From the NCBI GenBank assembly GCA_951406725.2, contig OX597829.1, forward strand, positions 40,300,001 to 40,364,000: a DNA stretch of 64,000 nucleotides. The letters run 5' to 3'. The DNA is from Octopus vulgaris. Its lineage: Eukaryota. A program made the translations under genes and the position numbers. Below, in pieces: positions 2,228-63,950 of this stretch. The notes under the pieces were generated by a model, which searched no databases, was not told where the DNA came from, and was given only the letters and a program-made list of their open reading frames with translations. Numbering within the stretch: position 1 is the first letter of the stretch; each line of letters begins with the position of its first letter.

Positions 2228-2736
2228 AGGTATCCAATGTTGGGACCTTACTGATGATGATTTATCATAAGAGGTGATTACGAAGGTATCAGACCATGAA
2301 ACTTGATATCAGAAAGAGGAACCATGATGAACATGGCTGAAACTGTTGTAGGAACAATAAGGCCAATCCCTTCTTTATAGGGAAAATAGTTCTAACATTG
2401 TTTCATCATTACTGTTTTTTTTTTCTGTTTTGTAACTTTTGGTTCATATCCAGATGGCATTAGCTTTCTTAGATTGAGATTGTGTTGCTACAACTTCCAG
2501 CTAATTGACGTGTTTCACCAGATCTTCATTTGTTTTCATGTCACACTACAGCGCTGCGTTTTAATGTCCCTTGACCAACAAGTGCTTCTCATGTGATGTT
2601 GATTGACAGCACCTAATATTGTTGACTTTAAGTGCAGGAAATCTTTATCATATTTGTCCTTTGTTTCGAAAGATCACTTAGATTCCATCTCCTTGAGAAG
2701 AGCATCACTGTCTTGGTAAATCGGAAATCACGTAAA

Positions 2737-3036
2737 GGTGCACATGGCTTAGTAGTTAGGGTATTCGACTCATGATCATAAGGTCATGGGTTCAGTTCGC
2801 AGCAACGCATTTTGTCCTTGAACTTCATTCACACTGCTCTAGGTCCATTCAGTTGGCAAAAATGAGTGATACCTGTATTTCAAAGGGCCAATCTTGTGAC
2901 ATTCTGTGCCACACTGAATCTCCCTGAGAAGTACATGAAGAGTACGTGTGTCTGTGGAGTGCTCGGCCACATGCTTGTTAATTTCACGAGCAGGCTGTTC
3001 TGTTGATCAAATCTACTTGAAACCTTATTATCATAA
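2737..3036 (+). mobile_element. Older tRNA-derived SINE (family F)
   Basis: A-box TGGCTTAGTAG and B-box GGGTTCAGTTC, followed by TGTCCTTGA and CAGTTGGCAAAAATGAGT. Related fragments near 26870-26970 (-) and 51955-52025 (+). Confidence 0.65.
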
Positions 3037-3059
3037 ATTATAAATTGAAAATCATAACT

Positions 3060-3450
3060 GCTGCTGCCTATTCTATATGCTCCATGTAACATCACAAGTG
3101 AAGAAACTATGGAGATATTCATTGTCACAGATGCATATATCTTGGTTCACTTCCTCTTCAGGGTTCTAAGAATTTTTGATCTTGTTTTGCAATCGAATTG
3201 GATTATAATGAGCAGGGAGTGCTATTTCAGTGTTATGTCACATGACCAACATCACTTGCTTGTCTTTGACTTCCAGGAACAGAGTGGAGATATACCAGGG
3301 ATGCTGTGTTTTGATCAAGGACATCTGTGTTCCACCATGCTCTCAGGTACATGTCTCATAGCAATGTTGCTGGACATTGTCTCTGTACATTGAAATTTGA
3401 TGGCTGGGTTCCCTCCTTGCAATCTACTGTAAACACACAGATCCTTATAT
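3060..3450 (-). pseudogene. Possible decayed LINE ORF1-like fragment
   Basis: Minus-strand pieces such as IIQFDCKTRSKILRTLKRK resemble CR1/L2 ORF1 C-termini. Multiple stops; weak. Confidence 0.25.
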
Positions 3451-4416
3451 AAGTAGGGTGGCTTTCCCTCGAAGAATTTCAGTCTAGAACTTGTTAGCTA
3501 CATTGAGTCTAGTTTAACTAACTTACCAATGCCATTGCACAAGAAGCGGTGCAGTGTTACATGGAGACTGTTTGCAGAGCCACAGGTGAGAGGGGAGCCA
3601 GAGATAGACTTGCTGACTTGAAAAAGGGTTGAAAGGCTCCCTTGCCAAAGGTATTATCTCTCCCTGACACTCCATACCACTCAATCTTTGTATGTTGTGT
3701 GTAGTCTATCATCACCTTGTAGTTGTTAAATTGCTTAGAAATTTTCTTATGTACTTTTGGCAGAAATCTCTTATCTCTCAGGTGCAACATCAGCCTGTCA
3801 CTCTGACACCTGTCATCTGGCCAGGTGCACCATTAATCACACCTCACACAGTCGACTCCATTACTAAGGGCTATGTTTGAGAAAACTGTCAGGGTTGTCT
3901 GTCTGTGTGTGTGTATGTGTGTTTGAGAGTATTGAATTTAATTCAACTAGGTTACAAGGTTAGTTGTTTGTTAATGGGGCAGAGGTGTAATTGACTGAAA
4001 TGAACACAAAATATTACTGGTGTACGCACATTTTTGTCAATCCAGGAAGTTGTAAAAGTTGAAATGGAATGACTTCAGCAGAACTAGGACTCTTTTGCAA
4101 GATTATACACAGCATTCAATTCATTCTTCAGTTTGAGCCAGTGGGCCTGAAACTTACAAATAACTACATCTCTCCCCCATAATACACTTACACACACAAA
4201 CACTTATGTGCACACACACACACAAATGAGTGAAATTTTTTACTCTCTTTATTAGCGAAAAGACCAAATACTGTTTGCATCCATATGATTCTTTCTTCAA
4301 CATGGCGTTGGATGGCTTTGTTAAGCTTAACACCATCTTATTTATTTTGATCATTTTCTTACTATATTTCTGTCGAAACACTTTTTTAAAAAAAAAAATT
4401 TTTACAATTACAAATA

Positions 4417-4579
4417 GGCGCAGGAGTGGCTGTGTGGTAAGTTGCTTGCTTACGAACCACATGGTTCCAGGTTCAGTCCCACTGTGTGGCACCTTAGGCA
4501 AGTGTCTTCTACTATAGCCTCGGGCCGACCAAAACCTTGTGAGTGGATTTGGTAGACGGAAACTGTAAGAAGCCTGTCG

Positions 4580-4618
<39 letters not shown>

Positions 4619-4837
4619 ATGCATGTGTATATGTTTGTGTCTGTGTTTGTCTCCCCAACATCGCTTGACAACTGATGCTGGTGTGTTTACATCCCCGTAA
4701 CTTAGCATTTCGGCAAAAGAGAGACCGATAGAATAAGTACTAGGCTTACAAAGAATAAGTCCTGGGGTCTATGTGCTCGACTAAAGGCGGTGCTCCTGCA
4801 TGGCCATGGTCAAATGACTGAAACAAGTAAAAGAGTA
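4417..4837 (+). mobile_element. SINE family B, full length
   Basis: tRNA-like head GGCGCAGGAGTGGCTGTGTGG...GGTTCAGTCCC, CORE-like ACCTTAGGCAAGT, internal (TA)n/(TG)n, tail TGACTGAAACAAGTAAAAGAG. Confidence 0.9.
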
Positions 4838-4940
4838 ATTAAGTTTGTGAAATAAATAAATTTGTCATAATTAAGTTGGTGTTTTAAAACAAAAATCACT
4901 TGAAGTTTTGATGGCAGGTTTTTATTTAGATACATTTTAA

Positions 4941-5161
4941 CCCTTTAGCATTTAAACCGGCCATATCCGGCCAAAATATTCTCCCCCTTTTTATGTTCAA
5001 ACTGGCCAGATCTGGCCCCTCACACCAGCCCTACTATATAATTCTAAAAATGAATAGTTACTTCATCAAAATCTCAAAGCTACAAGATAATGCAGGATTA
5101 ATTCAAAACAATGCGAATAAATAAGCATTACTTTTGACAGAATAACGCAAATACTAAAGGA
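4941..5161. mobile_element. piggyBac-type MITE family E1
   Basis: TTAA|CCCTTTAGCATTT ... AAATACTAAAGGA|TTAG. Confidence 0.8.
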
Positions 5162-5327
5162 TTAGAGCAGTGAATTTGTATCATATATAACAAGGAACAG
5201 TTTCAGGAAGATTGGCATCAAATGTCCTAATCAAAACAATTTTTCTCTTCCCCGTTCAATCCTCACTTCCTATAAGAAGCACCGATCTTGGACATTTCTC
5301 CAGGTTGTTTGTGTCCCAGAAAATTAA

Positions 5328-5605
5328 CACCTTTTGTTGTCATATATCTCTTCAAATACACTGTTTCAATTAATATTGAAAATAATGAATTAATATTGTT
5401 TCAATTAATAATGAATTAATGTTGTTTTAATTGATATTGAAAATATAATGAAGAATTTAGAAAAAAAATAACTTTGTCAACATTAAGACGTTGTTTGGAA
5501 CATAAGTTGACCTGAAGTTCTGATGAAAGGTTGTAATCATTTCAAAAACAGGAAGTTGGTATTGTAGAATGAGAGGTGGTTTCATGCTGGCTGGTACCAA
5601 AACGG
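5328..5605. mobile_element. Degenerate piggyBac-type MITE family E2
   Basis: Reverse-complement similarity to the 38117 units (GAAGAATTTAG..AAATAACTTTGTC, GTTTGGAACATAA). Degenerate TIRs. Confidence 0.6.
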
Positions 5606-6289
5606 TTAGCAGATGTTACACTGCCTGGACCAGTTGTAATTTTGTATATTTAAAACAAATACAACATTTCTTTTTAAAGCTGTTTCTTTTTTTTTCTTCT
5701 TTTGATGACCTGAACTTCCTGATGGTGAACAGTGACTAATCTTTCCAGTAGCAAAAAAGAAAGAAAGAAAGAAAGAAAGAAACTAGTCAGGGCCAGGGTC
5801 TACCTTTGCTCTGATATTCCCATGGGCAAGAGAGAGAGAGACATTTACCCAATATGTACCAGGGATTTAGCTACACTTTTATAGACAGACAAGTGACATA
5901 AATGGATGGCAGACATGTAACTCTGTACACTCTGATTTTGAAGATTAATCTGTACAGACATTAAATAACCAAGAAGGTGTCAAATGGAAGGGAAGTAATT
6001 GAAAGAACATACTCACACACATGTGTGTACAAGCACACATTCACACATTCTACATCCCTTTCTTCATATATTTGTCTGTTTATGTGCAACATGCCATTCT
6101 TTTGTTGCTCTTTTTTTTCTGATTCTAACATTAACCTCAGTACTGTCTTCTAACAAAATAAAAAGATTGAAGCACATATTTAAACACACATACATTTATA
6201 CACACACGCACCACAGTTACACATTCATATACATATCATGCATGCTTCAATAATGAACTGGGGCATATGAGTAGTAGTTATACATATCT

Positions 6290-8347: not shown

Positions 8348-9131
8348 GCACACATGTTTATTTCTTTTCTCTCCACTAAAGTCTGATAGTAGGATGCAGA
8401 GAAAAGGGTGGTAGCATCAGGGATGACAATGCCAAAAGGCATTGTTGTGCCAGGTGAGGTGGAGTGAAGATTGATAGGAATAAATACTATAGAGGGAGGG
8501 ATGACAAAGGAGGGAGAGAGTGAGGGAAGAATGAAAAAGAAGCAGGAAGAAAGAAAAGTTCATTCAAATACACACACACACACACACACACACACTAGCA
8601 CAAGCATACATGCATGCATATGTCATAGATTCTTTGAAAATTCTCCTTCAATTCTGATGTTTTCAAGAAATATCTGTTCTCAATGAAATACATACACACA
8701 CTAATACGCTCCCAGACACACGTCAATGCATGCATGCATATTCAGACAGGCCCACTCACATACATGTAGTCATACATAAATGCATATTATGCATACATAT
8801 TCACTCATTGAATGCTGAAAATCAAAATTAAATGGAAATATCTCATGTCAGAAGTGTTTAAAGTTTTTTTTTTTTTTGTTTCCGTTTATTTTCTGTTTTC
8901 TGTTCCAAAAGAAATCACACAGACACACGCACATGTATGTGTGTGTATTTATATTTCATTTTTATTTGTAGAACTCCAAATAAATAATAGCAAGTAGATT
9001 TTGGATTAAAGACATTTTGGATTAAAGGCTGCCCATGAGAAGTGAATCCAAATGATTACAATAACACAAATGAGAATACACATGGATTTCAAGTACCAGT
9101 CATTTGTCATATAGCTTAAGTTTAAATTGCA

Positions 9132-9171
<40 letters not shown>

Positions 9172-9177
<6 letters not shown>

Positions 9178-9417
9178 GGATGAATGAATTATCCTTTGTT
9201 TACTGTTAACATGGAAAATTCAATAAACAGTTGCCAGAGTAGCAAAATTCATGCAAGTAACAAGGATGTAGCGACAGGTTCTCTTTCTTTCCTGATGAGA
9301 AGATTGCATTTTATACCGTTTATTCCTTTGGAATAAAACCAATGTTGTCATCGAAACATATGTCGAAAGTAAAAGAATTTGAATAGCGTCTGCATTCAAC
9401 TCCATTTATTTACTTAT
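9172..9417 (+). mobile_element. Hammerhead-bearing PLE-type remnant between (TA)n tracts
   Basis: Bounded by (TA)n, with imperfect inverted ends AAATGGATGAATG / CATTCAACTCCATTT. Contains the hammerhead at 9287-9369. Confidence 0.6.
9287..9369 (+). ncRNA. Type I hammerhead ribozyme, complete core
   Basis: Helix I CTTTC/GAAAG; core CTGATGA (9292-9298); long helix II capped by TTTATTCC-TTT-GGAATAAA; GAAA (9353-9356); palindromic helix III ACATATGT; GUC cleavage triplet ending at 9364. Confidence 0.85.
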
Positions 9418-9477
9418 ACATACATACATATATATATATATATGTATGTATTTATGTATATATATATATATATATTA

Positions 9478-9690
9478 TATTAAATTAGAGATAAAACCAC
9501 TATTAGGCAAATCAAACAATGAAAAACTTAAGCCAATACATAAAATTGATTAATTTATATTATTTTAAATATATATCAAAAGTATTAAAAGTTTAATAAA
9601 AGATAATGAGTAAAACACTACGATCGTTTCATGGCTGTCCAATTCGTAATAATTCGAGTTATGGTTACAGTCAATCTTCAGGTAATATAT
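9478..9690 (-). mobile_element. PLE-type 3' end with hammerhead
   Basis: Tail TAATAGTGGTTTTATCTCTAATTTA is shared with 13562-13586, with a looser relative near 16088-16110. Hammerhead at 9617-9686. Confidence 0.65.
9617..9686 (-). ncRNA. Minimal hammerhead ribozyme
   Basis: Minus strand ATTAC CTGAAGA TTGACTGT...ACAGCCAT GAAA CGA TC GTAGT. Helix I ATTAC/GTAGT, imperfect helix II, AUC cleavage triplet. Confidence 0.7.
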
Positions 9691-10369: not shown

Positions 10370-10996
10370 GGCGGTGAGCTGGCAGAAACGTTAGCACGTC
10401 GGGCGAAATACATAGCCGTATTTTGTCTGTCGCTACGTTCTGAGTTCAAATTCCGCCAAGGTCGACTTTGCCTTTCATCCTTTCGGGGTCGATAAATTAA
10501 GTACCAGTTACTCACTGGGGTCAGTATAATTGACTTAATCTGTTTGTCTGTCCTTGTTTGTCCTCTCTGTATTTAACCCCTTGTGGGTAGTAAAGAAATA
10601 GGTATTTCGTCTGCCGTTACGTTCTGAGTTCAAATTCCGCCGAGGTTGGCTTTGCCTTTCATTCTTTCGGGGTCGATAAATTAAGTACCAGTTACTCACT
10701 GGGGAGGGGGTCGATGTAATCGACTTAATCCATTTGTCTGTCCTTGTTTGTCCCCTCTGTGTTTAACCCCTTGTGGGTACTAAAGAAATAGGTATTTCGT
10801 CTGCCGTTACGTTCTGAGTTCAAATTCCACCGAGGGCGACTTTGACTTTCATCCTTTCGGGGTCGATAAATTAAGTACCAGTTACTCACTGGTGGGGTGG
10901 GGGTGGGGGTCGATGTAATCGACTCAATCCGTTTGTGTGTCCTTGTTTGTCCCCTCTGTGTTTAGCCCCTTGTGGGTAAGTAAAGAAATAGAAATA
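10370..10996 (+). mobile_element. SINE A concatemer: 1 full + 2 head-less units
   Basis: Units restart at GGTATTTCG at 10601 and 10791. Single 13-bp TSD GGTATACACACAA (10357-10369, 10997-11009). Confidence 0.9.
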
Positions 10997-16660: not shown

Positions 16661-17327
16661 TAGGCTCCTGTGTGTGCAGTTAGTTTGTGTGTGTATGTTA
16701 TTTAGTACATGCTTCAATGCATGTATGGGTTCAGCTACGATAATAAAAGCAAAATTCTGTCCATCTGGGACCCCTGTATTTGGCTTCTGAACATCCAACA
16801 TTGGGATCTGGTTTGAAAACATTTTGGTTGCTATGTCTAGCAGGTAAAGCTTGTCCAATTCACTCTGTTTTGGTTGGCATTTGTCAGATGATAATAAAAA
16901 TCAAGGGAGAGATAAATGACATTCACTTCGTTGCTTTCACATCAAGATAAGAACTTTGGGACAAATTGGCCAACGGTTGGAATTCGACTTGGGACAGGAA
17001 CAGTAGAATGATTGCAGTACAGAATTAATTCTCATCTATCCTTAACCTCTGATCAAAGAGCACCGGGGTATTTAGTCATAAATAGATGTATTATAGTCAT
17101 GCTATTTAGCTCCCTTTAGTTTTGGGTTACAGTCCCAATTAGCCCTTCACAGGTACTAGCTTAAAAGTATGCATGGAGTGCGGCTTTTAAGCAGGTTCTT
17201 GATAAAGCTCAAATGAAGTGTTTTGGGAACTTTCGTTTTTCCACTAATCTTCACTGTACCATTGTTCATTTATCAATTGCATCAGATTTGGAGATTGAGA
17301 TTAAACTTGTTTTGTTCTTTCATTATT

Positions 17328-17697
17328 GAGAGGTGGTTGGATGGAACCTACACTCGCCCCCTTATGAGAGCTCAAAATCTCTCGTGGAAGTGTCATCCAA
17401 CCAAAATGCAAATATATGGGAAACTACCACCTGTGTCATCTCTTGTGAAAGGTAGGAGAGTCCAGTTTGCTGGACATTGTTGTAGAGCTGAAAATAAGGT
17501 AATTTCTACTCTTCTCCTCCGAAAGCCATCTGCTCGCGATACCAGAGGGTGCACACTCTCCTACCCTGATGTAATCTCCAGGGATACAGGCATCCAGCAA
17601 CAGGACCTCTGTAATGCTATGATGGACTGTGAAGTCTGGCGTAGCATAGTAAATTTCATTGTCTCGACCACGGTCGAACAATGATGATGATGATGAT
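17328..17697 (+). mobile_element. RTE-clade LINE 3' fragment (family D)
   Basis: LDGTYTRPLMRAQNLSWK...RRVQFAGHCCR...VSTTVEQ* then (GAT)n. TSD TCTTTCAT. Confidence 0.9.
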
Positions 17698-26140: not shown

Positions 26141-26590
26141 TCATCATCATTGTTCGACTGTAGTCGAGACAATGGAATTTACTATGTTACGCCAGACTTC
26201 ACGGTCCATCATAGCATTACGGAGGTCCTGTTGCTGGATGCCTGTATCCCTGGAGATTACATCAGGGTAGGAGAGTGTGTGCCCTCTGGTATCACGAGCA
26301 GAAGGCTTCCAGAGGAGAAGAGTAGAAATTACCTTATTTTTAGCTCTACAACAATGTCCAACAAACTGGACTCTTCTACCTTTCACAAGAGATGATACAG
26401 GTGGTAATTTCCTATATATTTGTACTTTGGTTGGATGACGCTTCCACGAGAGATTCTGAGCTCTCATAAGGAGGTGAGTGTAAGTTCCATTCAACTGCCT
26501 CTCAAGCTTCTTTGATAACGTCCAGGTTTCTGAGCCATGTAGTAGAATTGGTTCGACTGTGGCTTTGAAGATTTTAAGTTTGAAATCTCT
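26141..26590 (-). mobile_element. RTE-clade LINE 3' fragment (family D), longest uninterrupted copy
   Basis: LKIFKATVEPILLHGSETWTLSKKLE...RRVQFVGHCCR...EQ*. TSD ACAACAGTTAT. Confidence 0.92.
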
Positions 26591-27194
26591 ACAACAGTTA
26601 TAGTGATTGTTGTTAATCAGCTTTGGTAAATGTTATCTTATAGACTTTTGCATGATTGATATTAAGAGCCAGCAACATGGTTTTACATTTATATTATGGT
26701 CACCAATTGTCACAGAAATTCTTTATTGTCAAGGACAATACATTATTATCAGAAATGACAGTGGATATGTCAGTGTTGTATAAACGGGTCTTCTGCCAGT
26801 GTCAACTACAGGTATTCCCTATTCCTGTTTTTCAATCATCTGAACTACCTGCTCATTAAGTTGATACATAAGTGGCTGCATATTCCACAGATACTTGTAC
26901 TTTTAATGTAATTCTCAGCTGGAACCAGAGTGACACAATGTGACAATGCTGGTCCTTTGAATTGCAGGTGAAGTCCACCTGGATGTTTTTCACATAATCT
27001 CTGCTGATCCAATTTCCAAGGCTTTGTCTGACCCTAAGCTATTTTAAATGAAGCTTGTTCAAGATTCCATCGAGTGTGGGGTATCAAATATAAGACCTTG
27101 AAATTATGAAGCAAAGATTTTAGCTATATGGCCATACCTGTGTCCTAGTTATCAGAAAATTTACTTTCTTTTTACTGTTATCACTATCACCACC

Positions 27195-29041: not shown

Positions 29042-30743
29042 TTAAAAGTAAACATCACAATCTGCTTATTTTCGTTACTCTACCAATTTACCATTTCCTC
29101 AAATCTATAAATTATTAATAACAAATAGTTACTGATACCACCATCTTGTTTAGGAAATTTGTTGATTGTATGTCACAAAGTTTATTTATTCCTCGCTAAT
29201 GGCAGCTGACAGATAGAGCATGGAATAAGTGCTTTGTGGTATTTGTTCTAGGTCTTTTGCATTCTGAGTTCAAATCCTTCATCAAGATCAACTTTGCATC
29301 TTATTTTTACAGGGTCAATAAAATAATGTAGCTGGGTGGATGATAGGGTGAGGCAATAAACCGTTCCCCCCAATCCCACCCATCCACCCACCATAAATTT
29401 CTGGTCTTATGTCTATGTTAGAAATTCTTGTTTTATTTACAGATTCTGTGTGTGTGTGTGTGTGTGTGTGTGTATAATAACATACAAAATACTAGAACAA
29501 GAATGTCTTTGCTTATTACATCTCCATCTGTCTGCAGGATTAAAGAAACATATTTTGGGGCTGATGCCTGTTTCCCCATGGATGGAGGAAGAGAGAGAGA
29601 GAGAGAGGCCTGGATGGAGTAAGTGATGTTTGTATTTAATATGTGCTTGCATCAAAGATAAAATATTGCCTCAAATGGTTCGTAGCCAAACCACAAATAT
29701 GATAAGAGAAGATAGGATGGTTATTAAAGACTGGGTTACATTGATTGGACAATGTCATGAAAACATATCTATATGGAAATATTGTTGCACAGATTCATCT
29801 TACCTATTCCAGTATGGAAGATGGTGGCAACAGCAGCCACAGAAATAACAATGCCAAAATTGGTAATAACTTCTAATTCTGTGTCATGTTAGGTCTTCTT
29901 TAGATTCAGTCCCAGGGCATAAACTGGGTTTTTGTTAATTGAAAGAAGCAGTGCTTCTTGTCACCCATTTAGTGTTTGTGATCTCTGGGCCTCCAGACCA
30001 AACACACAATCCTATCTCCTAAGAGCTTTGACCCTCTTTAACCCCCTCTCTAAACATGTTTTTTTCACCCTACAGGCATCAACTTGCAACTGTTTAAGAA
30101 AAACATTATTGAGCATTCCATTTTTGGTGGGCCTGTAGAGGCTATGGCATGGTCCCTTTCCTATAGACCATTCCAATCATATATCTGTGTATTGATTCAT
30201 TCCTCATTCTCTTCTGAATGTGAGAAACCATAAAGCTCCTCTACAAGGACCTGCATTTCCCTATTCCTTCTCTCATACCTTAATCCTTATCTGGTACATA
30301 AAGCCCCCCTCCTTGGGTTCCATAGGCTTGCAAGACGCATGGTAGCTTTATTAGTTTGTGCTAGTAATATGAGATACCCCCCTCCAGTGCACACTGTAAA
30401 GTGGTTGGTGTTAGGAAGTGCATCCAGCTATAAAAACTCTGCCAAAGCAGACACTGGAACATGATACGGTCCTTGGGCTCATTGGATCTTGTGAAACCAT
30501 CCAAACCATACCAGCATGGAAGATAGATGTTAAGCAATAATTATGATGGTCATTTTAGAGTAGACACAAGGAATAGGTGAATTCTGAAGTAGAGGGGGAA
30601 GTCCTTATAACAATCTTAGTTCCATAGAAACTGTGGTATAGAGTTAAATAACTGAACCCTGTTGACTGTTTGTGATGTCAGAAGATATTGTACATGTTGT
30701 TTATGGAATGTGAATACATGTGGTAATGATACTGAATTTGTTC

Positions 30744-30777
<34 letters not shown>

Positions 30778-30787
30778 TGTGTGTGTG

Positions 30788-31146
30788 TTGGATGGAACTT
30801 ACACTCGCCTCCTTTTGAGAGCTCAGAATCTCTCGTGGAAGCGTCATCCAACCAAAGTACAAATATATGGGAAACTACCACCTGTGTCATCTCTTGTGAA
30901 AGGTAGGAGAGTCCAGTTTGCTGGACGTTGTTGTAGAGCTGAAAACGAGGTAATTTCTACTCTTCTCCTCTGGAAGCCATCTGCTCATGATACCAGAGGG
31001 CACACACTCTCCTACCCTGATGTAATTTCCAAGGATACAGGCATCCAGCAACAGGACCTCCGTAATGCTATGATAGACTGCAAAGTCTGGTGTAACATAG
31101 TAAATTCCATTGTCTCGACCATGGTTGAACAATGATGATGATGATG
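30788..31146 (+). mobile_element. RTE-clade LINE 3' fragment (family D)
   Basis: LDGTYTRLLLRAQNLSWKRHP...VSTMVEQ* (GAT)n. Confidence 0.9.
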
Positions 31147-35855: not shown

Positions 35856-37264
35856 AACAAGGGGGGTTTTACCATTGATAAACAAAAAATTGTTGAAAAT
35901 AGTTTTTGGTATGTATGTGAATAAATCCCAAAAATAAATCCAACCTTAGGAAATCTACCTCAAGGGGTTTTGTCCAGCACATGCAAGCCTGGATAAGTAT
36001 TAAAATGATAACAGCACAAAGGATTATAAAGAACATTGTCACCTACTTCTTTTACATAACACCATGTGATGTTGCTGTTGTTGTTTAGTTGCTGGTGAGC
36101 CTTCATTGATCAGACTTATGACCAAGGGAATTTCTGCAATGATGACCCCTTCTTTCCTATAGACATAGGTAATCTCTTTGGTTCTTTCATTTCTTTAGAT
36201 TGTAGAATATGGCTTGAAGGAGATTTGGTTGCTTTTTTTTAGCAACCAAATCTCAGAATTCTTCCTGCATTGGCATCTTAATGTTGTTAATAATCATACC
36301 TTGTTCACATATTTATGGTAAAGTAGCAGAATTGATAGGGACCATTCATGTGTGTGTTTGTGTGCCTAAAAATCATATAAACATAACTCTCATGTATATG
36401 TGTCACGTCTCTCTCTTTCTCTCAGATGCACACATTCGCTTGGAATCATGCATGTAATAACAAGGTATGTATATGATATGCATGTGAGCAGATACTTGCA
36501 ATACATGTAGGAAGATGCAAACATATGTACAGGTACACATACGTGTGTGTGTATATATATATATATATATTAGCCATTCTTGTTGAAACATCTCTAAATA
36601 CCCGTTATCTAACATCTCATTAACCAAGATGTGGAGCATTAAAAAACCAAATTAGAACGAAATATGCAGTGAGAAAGAAAAAAAAAATTAGTTGATGATT
36701 AATAGGCTTTTTTGTGTGGGTGTGGGTGTGTGGGTGGAGGGGGACACCATCGCCATTACTACCACCACCATCACCACCATCACACCATCAATTTTCTACA
36801 AATATGATAGATAACTCAGGATAAGTTTCTGGGTTAGGTTTTGTTGTTGTTGTTGTTGTTTATGCTTTTTAAGCTTCATCAGCAGAAATGCTAAGTTCTC
36901 ACTTGCTGTAAACTCGCAGAACTGGCAACAAGCAAAATCGCTGAGTCAGTTGACAGAAATGCACGTTTTTTTTTTTTTTATTGGCATAGAGAAAGGAAAG
37001 GGAAATTGTTTAAAAATTAAATAATTACGAGATGCTATCCACAATATAAATAGTAGGTAAATAGATGTCAGCTTTATTTAATGCACAGAACGTTTGAAGA
37101 GTTGGAATAGAATGAAATATTTAATTTGGTCATGACTAATAATTGCAGTGGATTGTTTGCTACTTACAACTTCGGCAGATTACAGCAAGGTTACATGTTT
37201 TGCTGTTGACATCAAAATAAGACAGGAACAAATTCAGAGTCATCTCCCTTGTTTACCATTGGTG

Positions 37265-37809
37265 TCATCATCATCATTGTTCGACCGTGGTCGAGACAAT
37301 GGAATTTACTATGTTACGCCAGACTTCACGGTCCATCATAGCATTACGGAGGTCCTGTTGTTGGATGCCTGTATCCCTGGAGATTACATCAAGGTAGGAG
37401 AGTGTGCGCCCTCTGGTATTGCAAGTAGATGGCTTCCAGAGGAGAAGAGTAGAAATTACTTCTTTTTCAGCTCTACAACAATGTCCAGCAAACTGGACTC
37501 TCCTACCTTTCACAAGAGATGACACAGGTGGTAATTTCCCATATATTTGCATTTTGGTTGGATGGCGCTTCCACGAGAGATTTTGAGCTCTCATAAGGAG
37601 AGCTACACCAGGGTTCCTCTTCCCCAGGAATTACCTCATTTTCAGCTCTACAACAATGTCCAACAAACTGGACTCTTCTACCCTTCACAAGAGATGATAC
37701 AGGTGGTAGTTTCCCATATATTTGCATTTTGGTTGGATGGCGCTTCCACGAGAGATTTTGAGCTCTCATAAGGAGGCGAGTGTAGGTTCCAGCCAACCGC
37801 CTCTCAAGC
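37265..37809 (-). mobile_element. RTE family D fragment with internal duplication and filler
   Basis: Two overlapping RTE segments (37265-37600, 37628-37809) joined by a 27-nt non-RTE filler. TSD CCATT(G/T)GTGT. Confidence 0.88.
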
Positions 37810-38116
37810 CATTTGTGTAGTGGATGAAGGACATAGCTTAATTTGATTTAATTTTTCTCATTTGCATGTCATTGAAAGCGAAGGTTCTTCTGTGCCACTG
37901 TCGTATTTACACTGTTCTTAATAGCATGTGCACCCACATGTTATCGGCAGTTCTGGGAAAAAGCCTCGTGCCAAACAAAGACTCTATGGCAGTTCTGTTG
38001 TAATCACTGATGTCATTAGAGGGAAATAGAGGCTGAAACTTTGGAGCAGGGGACTGATCTTTACATTGACCCCAGTGTTTGACCGATACTTATTTTATTG
38101 ACCCTGGAAGGATTAA

Positions 38117-38831
38117 CCCTTTCATTACCAACCCGGCCAAAACCGCCTCTGGCTCTGTAGTACAAATGTCTTGTTTTCTTAAGTTTTGAATTAAAATCTT
38201 CCACCAAACCTTAGTCACAGTTTATGTTCCTAACACCAGCTTAATGATAACAAAGTTATTTTACTAAATTCTTTGTTCTCTCTTTAAAATTAATTGAAAG
38301 AAACACAGAGCATCTAAACAGAAATACAGTAACGAAAGGGTTAAAATATATAATAGAGAAACAATTCTTAACCCTTTTGATACTAACCTGGCTGAAACTG
38401 GCTCTGAGTACAAATGTCTTGTTTTCATAAGTTTTGAATTAAAATCTTCCACCAAACCTTAGTCACAATTTATGTTCCTAACACTAGCTGAATGATAACT
38501 AAGTTATTTTACTAAATTCTTTGTTATATCTAAAATTAATTGAAAGAAACACAGAGCATCTCAACAGAAATACAGTAACGAAAGGGTTAAAATATATAAT
38601 AGAGAAACAATTCTTAATCCTTTTGATACTAACCTGGCTGAAACTGGCTCTGAGTACAAATGTCTTGATTCCATAAGTTTTGAATTAAAATCTTCCTCCA
38701 AACCTAAGTCACAATTTATGTTCCTCACACTAGCTTAATGATAACAAAGTTATTTTACTAAATTCTTTGTTATATTTAAAGTAACTGAAAGAAACACAGA
38801 ACATCTCAAAATAAGTAGGGTAATGAAAGGG
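38117..38831. mobile_element. Composite piggyBac-type MITE E2 trimer inserted in an old SINE A
   Basis: Units 38117-38340, 38372-38586 and 38618-38831, each TTAA-bounded with CCCTTT/AAAGGG-type ends, with identical 23-bp spacers. SINE A sequence resumes across the outer TTAA. Confidence 0.9.
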
Positions 38832-38964
38832 TTAACAGCAAAGTCAGTCTCGGTGGAATTTGAAGTCAGGATGTAAAGGGTTGGAAGAAATTCCACAAGG
38901 TTGTCCGTTCATTGCTCTGATAATTCTGCTGGCTCATCGACTTCACACTATTTATAATAACAGT

Positions 38965-42489: not shown

Positions 42490-43540
42490 TCAGGGCTATC
42501 CAGAGATTGAATACTTTTCCACCCATGGTGTCTACAGGGAGAGACACACAAACTCTGAAGTTCTAAGAAGAGCCAATCTGTGTCAGCTGTAAAAGATTGT
42601 GGCGGAAAGAAGAGTGAAACTTGCAGGTCATGCTTTGCATCTAGCAGAAGAAAAGATACCTATTTCTTTACTACCCACAAGGGGCTAAACACAGAGGGGA
42701 CAAACAAGGACAGACAAACGGATTAAGTCGATTATATCGATCCCGGTGCGTAACTGGTACTTATTTAATCGACCCCGAAAGGATGAAAGGCAAAGTCGAC
42801 CTCAGCAGAATTTGAACTCAGAACGTAGCAGCAGACAAATTACCGCTAAGCATTTTGCCCAGCGTGCTAACGTTTCTGCCAGCTCGCCGCCCTCTGAAAA
42901 AATACCTATTTCTTTACTACCCACAAGGGGCTAAACACAGAAGGGACAAACAAGGACAGACAAACGGATTAAGTCGATTATATCGACCCCGGTGCGTAAC
43001 TGGTACTTATTTAATCGACCCCAAAAGGATGAAAGGCAAAGTCGACCTCAGCAAAATTTGAACTCAGAACGTAGCAGCAGACAAAATACCGCTAAGCATT
43101 TTGCCCAGCGTGCTAACGTTTCTGCCAGCTCACCGCCCTCTGAAAAAATACCTATTTCTTTACTACCCACAAAGGGCAAACAAGGACAGACAAACGGATT
43201 AAGTCGATTACATCGACCCCAGTGCATAATTGGTACTTAATTTATCGACCCCAAAAGGATGAAAGGCAAAGTCGACCTCGGCGGAATTTGAACTCAGAAC
43301 ATAATGGCAAACGAAATACGGCTACGCATTTCGCCCAGCGTGCTAACGTTTCTGCCAGCTCGCCACCTCTGAAAAAATACCAATGACAGCTATACAGTAG
43401 GTACTACCAGAGAGATGAAAGAAGAGAAAGCCACCCAGGAAGATGCAGTGCACCACTTACAAAGAATATCTGATGCAACTCAGAATCACTTTGGAAGATG
43501 CAGGTGACTTTGCACAAGATTGAGATTATTGGAGATGTCT
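42490..43540 (+). pseudogene. Old RTE-clade LINE C-terminal fragment split by a SINE A triplet
   Basis: HTNSEVLRRANLCQL*KIVAERRVKLAGHALHLAEEKIP | MTAIQ*VLPER*KKRKPPRK...FAQD*DYWRC. Confidence 0.75.
42661..43367 (-). mobile_element. Three full-length SINE A copies separated by TCTGAAAAAATACC
   Basis: Units 42661-42891, 42907-43137 and 43153-43367. Spacer resembles the left flank GAAAAGATACC. Confidence 0.9.
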
Positions 43541-50649: not shown

Positions 50650-51440
50650 GGCAGCAAGCTGGTAGAACCGTTAGCATGCCTGGCGAAATGCGTAGCCGTA
50701 TTTTGTCTCCCGTTACATTCTGAGTTCAAATTCCGCCAAGGTCGACTTTACCTTTCATCCTTTCAGGGTCGATAAATTAAGTACCAGTTATGCACTGGGG
50801 GTCGATGTAATCGACTTAATCCGTTCGTCTGTCTTTGTTTGTCCTCTCTGTGTTTAGCCCATTGTGGGTAGTAAAGAAATAGGTATTTCGTCTGCCGTTA
50901 CGTTCTGAGTTCAAATTCCGCCAAGGTCGACTTTGCCTTTCATCCTTTCAGGGTCGATAAATTAAGTACCAGTTATGCACTGGGGGTCGATGTAATCGAC
51001 TTAATCTGTTCGTCTGTCCTTGTTTGTCCTCTCTGTGTTTAGCCCCTTGTGGGTAGTAAAGAAATAGGTATTTCGTCTGCTGTTACGTTCTGAGTTCAAA
51101 TTCCGCCAAGGTCGACTTTGCCTTTCATCCTTTCAGGGTCGATAAATTAAGTACCAGTTATGCACTGGGGGTCGATGTAATCGACTTAATCCGTTCGTCT
51201 GTCCTTGTTTGTCCTCTCTGTGTTTAGCCCCCTTGTGGGTAGTAAAGAAATAGGTATTTCGTCTGCCGTTACGTTCTGAGTTCAAATTCCGCCGAGGTCG
51301 ACTTTGCCTTTCATCCTTTCAGGGTCGATAAATTAAGTACCAGTTATGCACTGGGGGGTCGATGTAATCGACTTAATCCGTTCGTCTGTCCTTGTTTGTC
51401 CCTTCTCAGCGTTTAGCCCCCTCGTGGGTAGTAAAGAAAC
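50650..51440 (+). mobile_element. SINE A concatemer: 1 full + 3 head-less units
   Basis: Restarts at 50882, 51067 and 51253 (about 185-bp period). TSD TAATGTATCCCAAA (50636-50649, 51445-51458). Confidence 0.92.
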
Positions 51441-53241: not shown

Positions 53242-53407
53242 ATCTACATAGTTCCTTCTTTTACAATTGCTTTTAGGATTCAATAGTGGTCCCACTATTT
53301 GCATATTTTGCAAAGAGTAGACCTTTTTAACAGAAACAAACTGCCATTGTCATGAAGCATTGTCTTTAACTAAAGTTTTTTTTTCTCTTTTCTGTTCTAT
53401 GTTCCAG

Positions 53408-53571
53408 GGTATGTATCATCATCTGTCATAGCAATGAATTGATGAACCAAACAGAACCTATTGATGATTCCAAGTTATTAAACTGAAAGGATTTTAGAAC
53501 TTGACAAAAAAATATTTCCAAAATTTATAAGCAAGTTTGAAGAAAACAACAAAAAAAATTAACAATTAAAA
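53408..53571 (+). other. Candidate non-coding (UTR or lncRNA) exon
   Basis: Long polypyrimidine tract ending TTCCAG| and a strong donor AAA|GTAAGT. Unique sequence with stops in all three frames. Confidence 0.4.
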
Positions 53572-53762
53572 GTAAGTACTTCTTCATATATTTTTGTCTT
53601 TCCAAATATAATTTTTAAAATGTTTATCTCCATATATAGAAATACTCATTTTTTTTTTTTTTTTGTTCCTCTGACCTTTTTTATTTTTGTTTCCTCTGTC
53701 TGTCTGTCTGTCTCTCTCTCTGTCTCTCTCCCTCTCTCTGTATGTCTCTCTCTCTCCCTGTA

Positions 53763-63562: not shown

Positions 63563-63950
63563 TGTTTCTTTACTAACCACAAGGGGCTAAACACAAAGAG
63601 GACAAACAAGGACAGACAAACGGATTAAGTCGATTATATCGACCCCAGTGCGTAACTGATACTTATTTAATGAACCCTGGAAGGATGAAAGGCAAAGTTG
63701 ACCTCGGTGGAATTTGAACTCAGAACGTAAATACAGACGAAATACCTATTTCTTTACTACCCACAAGGACAGACAAACAGATTAAGTCGATTATATCGAC
63801 CCCAGTGCAAGACTGGTACTTATTTAATCAACCCCGAAAGGATGAAAGGCAAAGTTGACCTTGGCAGAATTTGAACTCAGAACATAACAGCAGACGAAAT
63901 ACCGCTCAGCATTTCGCCCGGCGTGCTAACGTTTCTGCCAGCTCACCGCC
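63563..63950 (-). mobile_element. SINE A dimer: 1 full + 1 head-less unit
   Basis: Junction GAAATACC|TATTTC at about 63746, the same junction as in the other concatemers. Confidence 0.9.

Follow-up and report, generated by a model that had tools for sequence, protein, structure and literature searches.

A 3′-UTR hammerhead ribozyme in a truncated, probably inert Penelope-like element insertion between two TA repeats of the Octopus vulgaris genome

The DNA considered here is a 64,000-nt stretch of the Octopus vulgaris genome (contig OX597829.1), referred to below as the window, and coordinates are positions within it. When both strands of the whole window were searched with a descriptor of type I hammerhead ribozymes, a single match was returned, at 9287-9369 on the plus strand. 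Applied to 200 dinucleotide shuffles, the same descriptor gave a mean of 0.005 matches with a helix I of at least 5 bp, and none once helix III was also required. Helix I is formed by a 5′ strand at 9279-9291 and a 3′ strand at 9365-9377, both evident from the sequence, from folding and from compensatory changes (covariation) among copies. Its proximal part joins CTTTC (9287-9291) to GAAAG (9365-9369) in five Watson-Crick pairs, and folding extends it by another six pairs between 9279-9285 and 9371-9377. In the standard hammerhead numbering, the catalytic core CUGAUGA (C3-A9; DNA CTGATGA) occupies 9292-9298 and is followed by a 54-nt domain II (9299-9352). According to folding and compensatory changes, this domain consists of a proximal helix (9299-9310/9341-9352) that includes the G10.1-C11.1 pair, an asymmetric internal loop, and an apical hairpin at 9318-9339. 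The rest of the motif (plus strand, 9353-9364) contains GAAA (9353-9356), the palindromic helix III ACAUAUGU (9356-9363; the palindrome being ACATATGT) and a GUC triplet ending in C17 at 9364, after which the cut is predicted to fall (9364/9365). The core features of a type I hammerhead are all present, namely CUGANGA, GAAA, A15.1-U16.1 and an NUH triplet.

An earlier sequence-only reading of this DNA had placed the 5-bp helix I, the core, GAAA, a self-complementary helix III and GUC where they are found here. The apical hairpin of the extended helix II that it described is also present, but helix II itself is imperfect in this copy, with an A.A mismatch at 9301/9350. As a duplex of two copies, the 8-nt palindrome has a folding energy of −7.0 kcal/mol, while helix III of the monomer is weak (probability ~0.3 in folding). 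The Rfam scan suggested in that reading produced no hammerhead match at the gathering threshold in the window; at E≤10 over 9000-9600, it gave 28 matches without a ribozyme among them, most being miRNA models that match the microsatellite. Perhaps the long domain II accounts for this miss.

The ribozyme motif lies in an island of ~245 bp (9173-9418) made up of two pieces. To its left is a (TA)n tract at 9146-9174 (TRF period 2, 14.5 copies), which is likely the target microsatellite. The first piece, at 9173-9275 on the minus strand, corresponds, in inverted orientation, to the distal ~100 nt of the ~150-nt tail of a Penelope-like element (PLE), with 91% identity to oriented positions 2707-2814 (reversed) of a full-length parent, L062. 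The tail is the start of the 5′ UTR, i.e., the sequence that follows the pseudo-LTR (pLTR) in a tandem transcript, and an inverted or direct tail of the same kind is found at most loci of the family. The second piece, at 9276-9418 on the plus strand, is the 5′-truncated 3′ end (the last ~140 nt) of the pLTR/3′ UTR, and is 86-90% identical to both pLTRs of L062. At the junction (9275/9276), the inverted tail is joined to the pLTR end over a 2-nt GA microhomology. To the right of the insertion is a degenerate (TA)n/(TACA)n repeat (9415-9480; TRF). Comparison with L062 identifies the island as the sole piece of the parent element in the window. A search for the empty pre-insertion site gave no contig that joins across the insertion, and contigs break at the TA repeats. 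The description of the locus as a microsatellite-bounded island was apt, and is explained simply as insertion of a PLE into its (TA)n target. Judged by these matches, the motif is not a host element and is instead a piece of a repeat family.

Other repeats also occur in the window. Directly right of the island, at 9479-9683, is another very high-copy repeat (depth above 10^6 in run X18). Short tandem runs with a period of 157-246 bp and 2-4 copies were identified with TRF at 10418-10991, 38149-38835, 42650-43381, 50698-51439, and 63606-63903, and we take these to be one SINE-type repeat. Four or five near-identical 3′ ends, presumably belonging to a LINE-like ORF, are located at 17217-17681, 26150-26632, 30656-31132, and 37277-37847.

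Copy number of the family is high. A search of the 2.8-Gb genome with the DNA at 9230-9400 yielded 1,583 candidates, and among 40 of these that were scored the main matches are 84-96% identical, the window's own copy excepted. The exact pattern core-N30-60-CGAAACATATGTC occurs at 3,249 genomic sites (1,604 + 1,645), against 0 for a reversed control; at least this many copies share the palindrome. The matching sites split into several subfamilies. At L121, L134, L136, and L149, helix III reads ACATGTGT or near to it, and G-U pairs still allow self-pairing. Body lengths at the 5′ side vary continuously among family loci, up to full ORFs, and the tail may be found at either end of a copy. Ends mapped at 57 loci fall on two fixed points with ~150 nt between them, and most abut (TA)n. 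With eight other ends set aside, (TA)≥3 follows the end in 24/32 cases at one point (a count that includes the element's own last ATA) and in 35/43 at the other, versus 3.9% of window positions. The window's own right end was scored negative because its right-hand repeat is degenerate. A sister-subfamily element also forms a head-to-tail array with a period of ~3.2-3.7 kb (G000:C20:23330715-23354621; L123-L129, L147, L148). Its hammerhead core reads CTGGTGA and its palindrome is broken, and the array was likely amplified from one dead copy.

The structure of the parent is best seen in L062 (G000:C13:83876300-83883300, minus strand). In oriented coordinates, an inverted truncated piece (2291-2474) is followed by the upstream pLTR (2467-2659), which is a direct repeat of 5643-5835. 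Next come the 5′ UTR, an ORF that runs, frameshifted, from 2862 to 5430, and the 3′ UTR, with the ribozyme at 5709 and the element end at 5835, after which (TA)n begins. The order is therefore pLTR, 5′ UTR, ORF (reverse transcriptase (RT), thumb, Asn-rich linker, and GIY-YIG endonuclease (EN)), and 3′ UTR, in a unit of ~3.2 kb. The ribozyme is on the ORF strand within the pLTR/3′ UTR, the element ends ~50 nt past the cut site, and in tandem the ribozyme is positioned ~280 nt upstream of the ATG. A walk upstream from individual copies met the same parts, with a GIY-YIG-type endonuclease first, then an Asn-rich linker encoded by (AAT)n, the thumb, and the RT. In one copy (L149), a single open frame of 751 aa extends from the RT through most of the endonuclease. 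The in-frame (AAT)n of the RT-EN linker is very variable in length, and many 5′ truncations end there (L062, L064-L066, L031-L060).

Identification of the proteins is based on motifs and homologues, since Pfam gave no RT or GIY-YIG match on the family's own proteins (P0001-P0003) and a PDB search with P0002 gave nothing relevant. The RT carries the motifs QFDISSFY and GLYRDD/GLYHDD, and a full scan returned 5,643 RT homologues at E≤0.001 whose RT and EN motifs are alignable with the family. An earlier search for longer homologues with a piece of the EN had yielded 0/203 candidates at that threshold. Weak, sub-threshold matches to Pfam RVT_1 and GIY-YIG were obtained on 3/17 homologues. On this reading of the sequence, the parent is a single-ORF EN+ PLE with an RT and, C-terminally, a GIY-YIG endonuclease. 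Other features of EN+ PLEs are present as well, including the pLTR direct repeat, an inverted 5′-truncated segment, an optional tail, and a sense hammerhead in the pLTR.

The motif is best explained as the 3′-UTR ribozyme of this high-copy Penelope-like retrotransposon, carried in a truncated insertion of ~245 bp that is flanked by TA repeats on both sides, with the copy itself likely inert; we give this explanation a probability of roughly 85%. The sequence-only reading had proposed a PLE hammerhead of the dimer type, and this proposal is supported. The locus itself is of little weight, being one of thousands of fossil copies. What extends beyond it is a class of hammerheads with a long domain II, in at least 3,249 copies, that was missed by Rfam at 9287-9369.

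Pairing was examined in an alignment of 51 ribozymes (the window copy plus 50 pattern-selected copies, 20 of those hand-picked for diversity). The hammerhead structure leaves 81% of cells paired, compared with 38-49% when it is slid along the alignment, and both-side changes affect 89 cells versus 51.9 after shuffling (0/500). Compensatory U-A/C-G changes are observed in helix I at columns 23-105 (U-A in 40 and C-G in 9 of 51 rows), 20-108, and 15-113, and compensatory changes in domain II, across helix II and the apical hairpin, at 36-87, 39-84, 56-77, and 57-76. Covariation of helices I and II among genomic paralogues, which the sequence-only reading had named as a check, was therefore found between subfamilies. 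As the rows are related, it represents a handful of events, and two of five covariation measures are no better than the shuffle (pairs changed on both sides, 201/500; pair types, 494/500). Helix III columns are fixed by the search pattern, so the alignment is uninformative on that helix.

RNAalifold did not recover the hammerhead fold from this alignment, and chose a rival pair of hairpins at columns 19-25/30-36 and 89-93/102-106. These lie within columns 19-36 and 89-106, which correspond to ~9286-9303 and 9350-9367 of the window. By pair counts the rival fold does equally well (95.9% paired; 0/500), and it dominates the predicted ensemble in 7/50 copies. Such a fold would switch the ribozyme off, and it is kept across subfamilies as well as the active fold is. 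Its predicted pairing fits a regulatory switch and strand composition alike, and cannot tell the two apart.

It is conceivable on these grounds that the motif is vestigial family-wide, its helices reflecting U-rich and purine-rich strands and shared descent with no selection for cleavage. The equal pair counts of the rival fold would agree with this, as would A.C mismatches in helix II of some subfamilies (17/51 unpaired at columns 35-88), the C20 tandem array with its broken core, and copy starts that do not pile up at the cut (below). We nonetheless consider it improbable, given compensatory changes in three separate helices, a core that is kept in diverged subfamilies chosen by ORF start and not by motif (L130, L132, L137, L149), and core variation that occurs at position 7 (T/A/C/G), the free position.

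The window copy is a separate matter from the family. At 4/140 positions (9276-9415) it departs from what the majority of 29 sister copies carry, and one of these is a rare U-to-A substitution at 9350 on the plus strand. Here, T is found in 27/29 sister copies and A in 1/29, and contigs of four out of four runs carry T in >99.8% of summed depth. The A breaks a pair of helix II (A.A, 9301/9350), and it creates UCAUC, which is complementary to GAUGA of the core. In four folding windows, the core GAUGA-UCAUC pairing has a probability of ~0.99, and the probability of helix II drops to 0.001, against 0.98. The core is intact at 19 of 30 loci (L001-L030), including 18 other than the window copy; helix II with G10.1-C11.1 exceeds a probability of 0.5 in 13 of these 18, compared with the 0.001 of the window copy. 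The change is thus predicted to trap the core, within a model (ViennaRNA) to which tertiary contacts and dimer formation are external, and the copy is likely inert. It is not uniquely crippled: 15/50 copies from other subfamilies lie at least as far in energy from the hammerhead fold as this one, for which the gap is 5.8 kcal/mol.

The suggestion, made in the sequence-only reading, that the ribozyme could cut the nascent intron of a host gene transcribed on the plus strand is not supported. Cutting would call for a second ribozyme to pair with the palindrome, and both the descriptor and the element comparison detected none within the 64-kb window, so intron cutting lacks a partner in cis. Nor was a host gene or its strand found. 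The candidate exon is an exon-like stretch of 163 nt (53409-53571, within 53395-53580) with a strong polypyrimidine tract and canonical AG/GT splice signals (AG and GTAAGT). It contains stops in all three plus-strand frames, and may be an untranslated exon. Contigs of four runs that we took to be RNA include none over 53340-53607, which has no bearing on the exon either way. A Pfam search with the 145 longest of 330 filtered window frames gave no convincing domain. A FeThRed_B match just above the cut-off (36218-36454, plus strand; E 3.7e-5) falls in a single-copy Cys-rich sequence with a microsatellite and is likely due to chance, and a DUF3915 match was below the cut-off.

In one version of the intron proposal, the copy would be active and pair in trans with one of the thousands of transcripts sharing its palindrome. 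In its favour, the core bases and helix I are all intact, the palindrome is identical in at least 3,249 copies, family sequence is present in contigs of run X9 (guessed to be RNA), and the candidate exon has canonical splice signals. We regard it as quite unlikely, however, in view of the core sequestration predicted at ~0.99, the lack of a second ribozyme in the window, the closed frames of the exon, and the lack of a convincing Pfam domain among the frames searched. In addition, two studies describe, in their accessible text, metazoan PLE hammerheads that had no activity as monomers and little as dimers (PMC4209133), or that depended on the element's protein (PMC11167929).

It is very improbable that the island is a non-autonomous, retrozyme-like unit copied via a small (circular) RNA and no truncation product: although retrozymes have been proposed to derive from PLE pLTRs (bioRxiv 10.64898/2026.07.22.740005, as far as available) and direct joins of tail and pLTR end occur at a few other loci (L002, L009, L015, L030), those junctions differ, 5′ body lengths are continuous up to full ORFs, and the island is partly inverted, with no tandem unit detected by TRF at the locus. 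Metazoan non-LTR retrozymes share with the family a type I hammerhead and a relationship to PLEs, but theirs are tandem non-coding units according to the sections consulted (PMC7229834; bioRxiv 10.64898/2026.07.22.740005), whereas the island is one truncated fragment from an element that encodes protein.

Under the preferred explanation, a truncated PLE insertion, the island would trace back to a tandem transcript that was driven by the upstream pLTR's promoter and bound by the element's protein. A (TA)n tract would be nicked by the endonuclease, and reverse transcription would begin from two internal sites, by analogy with the Anolis Poseidon element PAc, in which two internal RT starts explain the tails (Frangieh et al. 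2024, PMC11167929, in the portion available). Synthesis presumably aborted after ~140 nt for one cDNA and after ~100 nt for its counterpart, and a head-to-head join over the GA microhomology would then link them. Cleavage after GUC in active elements would require a dimer, formed through two palindromic helices III, and probably the help of protein. In keeping with this, the available text reports that monomers of metazoan PLE hammerheads show no activity and their dimers little (PMC4209133; PMC6765202), and that PAc requires the element's protein for cleavage while its ribozyme mutants still insert (PMC11167929).

Were insertions templated by cut RNA, one would expect many copies to begin at the cut. 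No pile-up of copy starts was observed there, with exact counts falling from 706 to 668 across the cut (−5.4%) and to 622 over the next two bases (−6.9%). Where the upstream pLTRs of copies selected by ORF start reach the ribozyme, they run through it or break elsewhere, when read by eye. As copies do not begin at the cut, it is apparently the uncut RNA that normally serves as template. This provides genome-scale support, from a second clade, for ribozyme-cut RNA not being the main template for insertion.

The family shares many features with published PLEs. As described in the accessible part of Cervera and de la Pena 2014 (PMC4209133), the minimal type I hammerheads of metazoan PLEs have the same core, G10.1-C11.1 pair, proximal helix I of 4-5 bp, and palindromic helix III implying dimers, and they likewise number in the thousands, mostly as lone copies left by truncated elements, along with pairs on opposite strands. 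In contrast to those described there, the family is without an extra unpaired base between A9 and G10.1, its domain II far exceeds their helix II of 7-8 bp, and its helix I is distally extended. PAc resembles the family in its two fixed 3′ ends defining a tail, its AT-rich targets, and the lack of any reported sign of cut RNA as template, but it belongs to another clade, and has a short tail and a ribozyme that overlaps the ORF start, compared to one ~280 nt upstream of the ATG in the family (PMC11167929, same portion).

With respect to clade, a first assignment to Neptune was dropped after the definition of the Hydra clade by Craig et al. 2021 (PMC8557442; consulted in part, as throughout what follows). 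Shared with Hydra are the C-terminal GIY-YIG EN in one ORF, RW and DKT motifs, the lack of a conserved CCHH, CxxC/CxH, a sense type I hammerhead close to the 3′ end whose helix III is short and palindromic, insertion into (TA)n, a pLTR, and inverted 5′ structures, and the RT motif rows look alike by eye. In P0002, the RWK/DKT motifs read RIRWL and SDKTG, with L in place of the K of RWK, as in many homologues. The EN has no conserved CCHH, and shows CxxC before E and CxH after N (CNIC..E..N..CKH). Between SIY and YIG, 3/9 rows have a second Cys, and L149 has neither Cys.

The family departs from Hydra in several respects. A CxCX5C linker finger is present in all nine Hydra rows of Fig. S7 (PMC8557442), in 13/13 aligned homologues, and in 25/25 complete homologues (22 by regex and three by eye). 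In the family, where the linker is Asn-rich or (AAT)n-coded, the finger is absent from 9/9 readable linkers (23 loci examined) and from L149. For the 26 Hydra hammerheads listed in File S2, stems measure 3-7 bp and loops 3-10 nt, whereas domain II of the family has 54 nt; the family's tail has ~150 nt where 30-40 bp are described, and its unit of ~3.2 kb compares with "generally <3 kb" (PMC8557442). Hydra-1_Obim of Octopus bimaculoides (PMC8557442) also differs from the family, by eye, in N-terminus and ribozyme. In a quick, unrooted tree built with the homologues, the family is grouped (SH-aLRT 99) among finger-bearing proteins. Since one defining feature, the linker finger, is absent, we regard the family as Hydra-like and probably derived by finger loss, and not as a textbook member of the clade.

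Much of this is of a known kind. For the Hydra clade, publications already cover hammerheads and TA targeting as well as a different octopus family, whose hammerhead is compact, and inverted 5′ pieces, tails, and microsatellite bias are a general PLE pattern (Craig et al. 2021, PMC8557442). The hammerhead described here, a passenger in a truncated PLE, belongs to this known kind, and the new element is modest: a parent lineage without the linker finger that still inserts at TA, with a 54-nt domain II and a ~150-nt tail. No description of the family or of a finger-less Hydra lineage was found in the literature, and it may sit unnamed in Repbase or Dfam. It may also sit unnamed in the library of the O. 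vulgaris repeat paper, which in its available part lists Penelope-like families without ribozymes or clades (PMC13282606).

Craig et al. 2021 link the linker zinc finger to TA-repeat targeting (PMC8557442). A tentative and rather doubtful extension is that a Hydra-derived lineage lost the finger proposed to steer it to TA yet made thousands of TA insertions, with targeting provided by the EN core or by TA-ending priming sites of the RNA that pair with the nicked repeat, and that the enlarged domain II and rival hairpin act as a protein-gated switch. A finger-less lineage that still ends in (TA)n, together with a finger-bearing family in the same genome, offers a natural test and control for the finger hypothesis. 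That second family (L163-L182; e.g., L177 at G000:C12:43654628-43658071) is of Hydra type and very young, with many equal-scoring copies and open frames of ~727 aa (150 scored of 20,180 candidates). Its linker zinc finger is intact, a compact hammerhead precedes (TA)n in a 3′ UTR of ~1.1 kb, and two of its copies, L177 and L178, are arranged in tandem.
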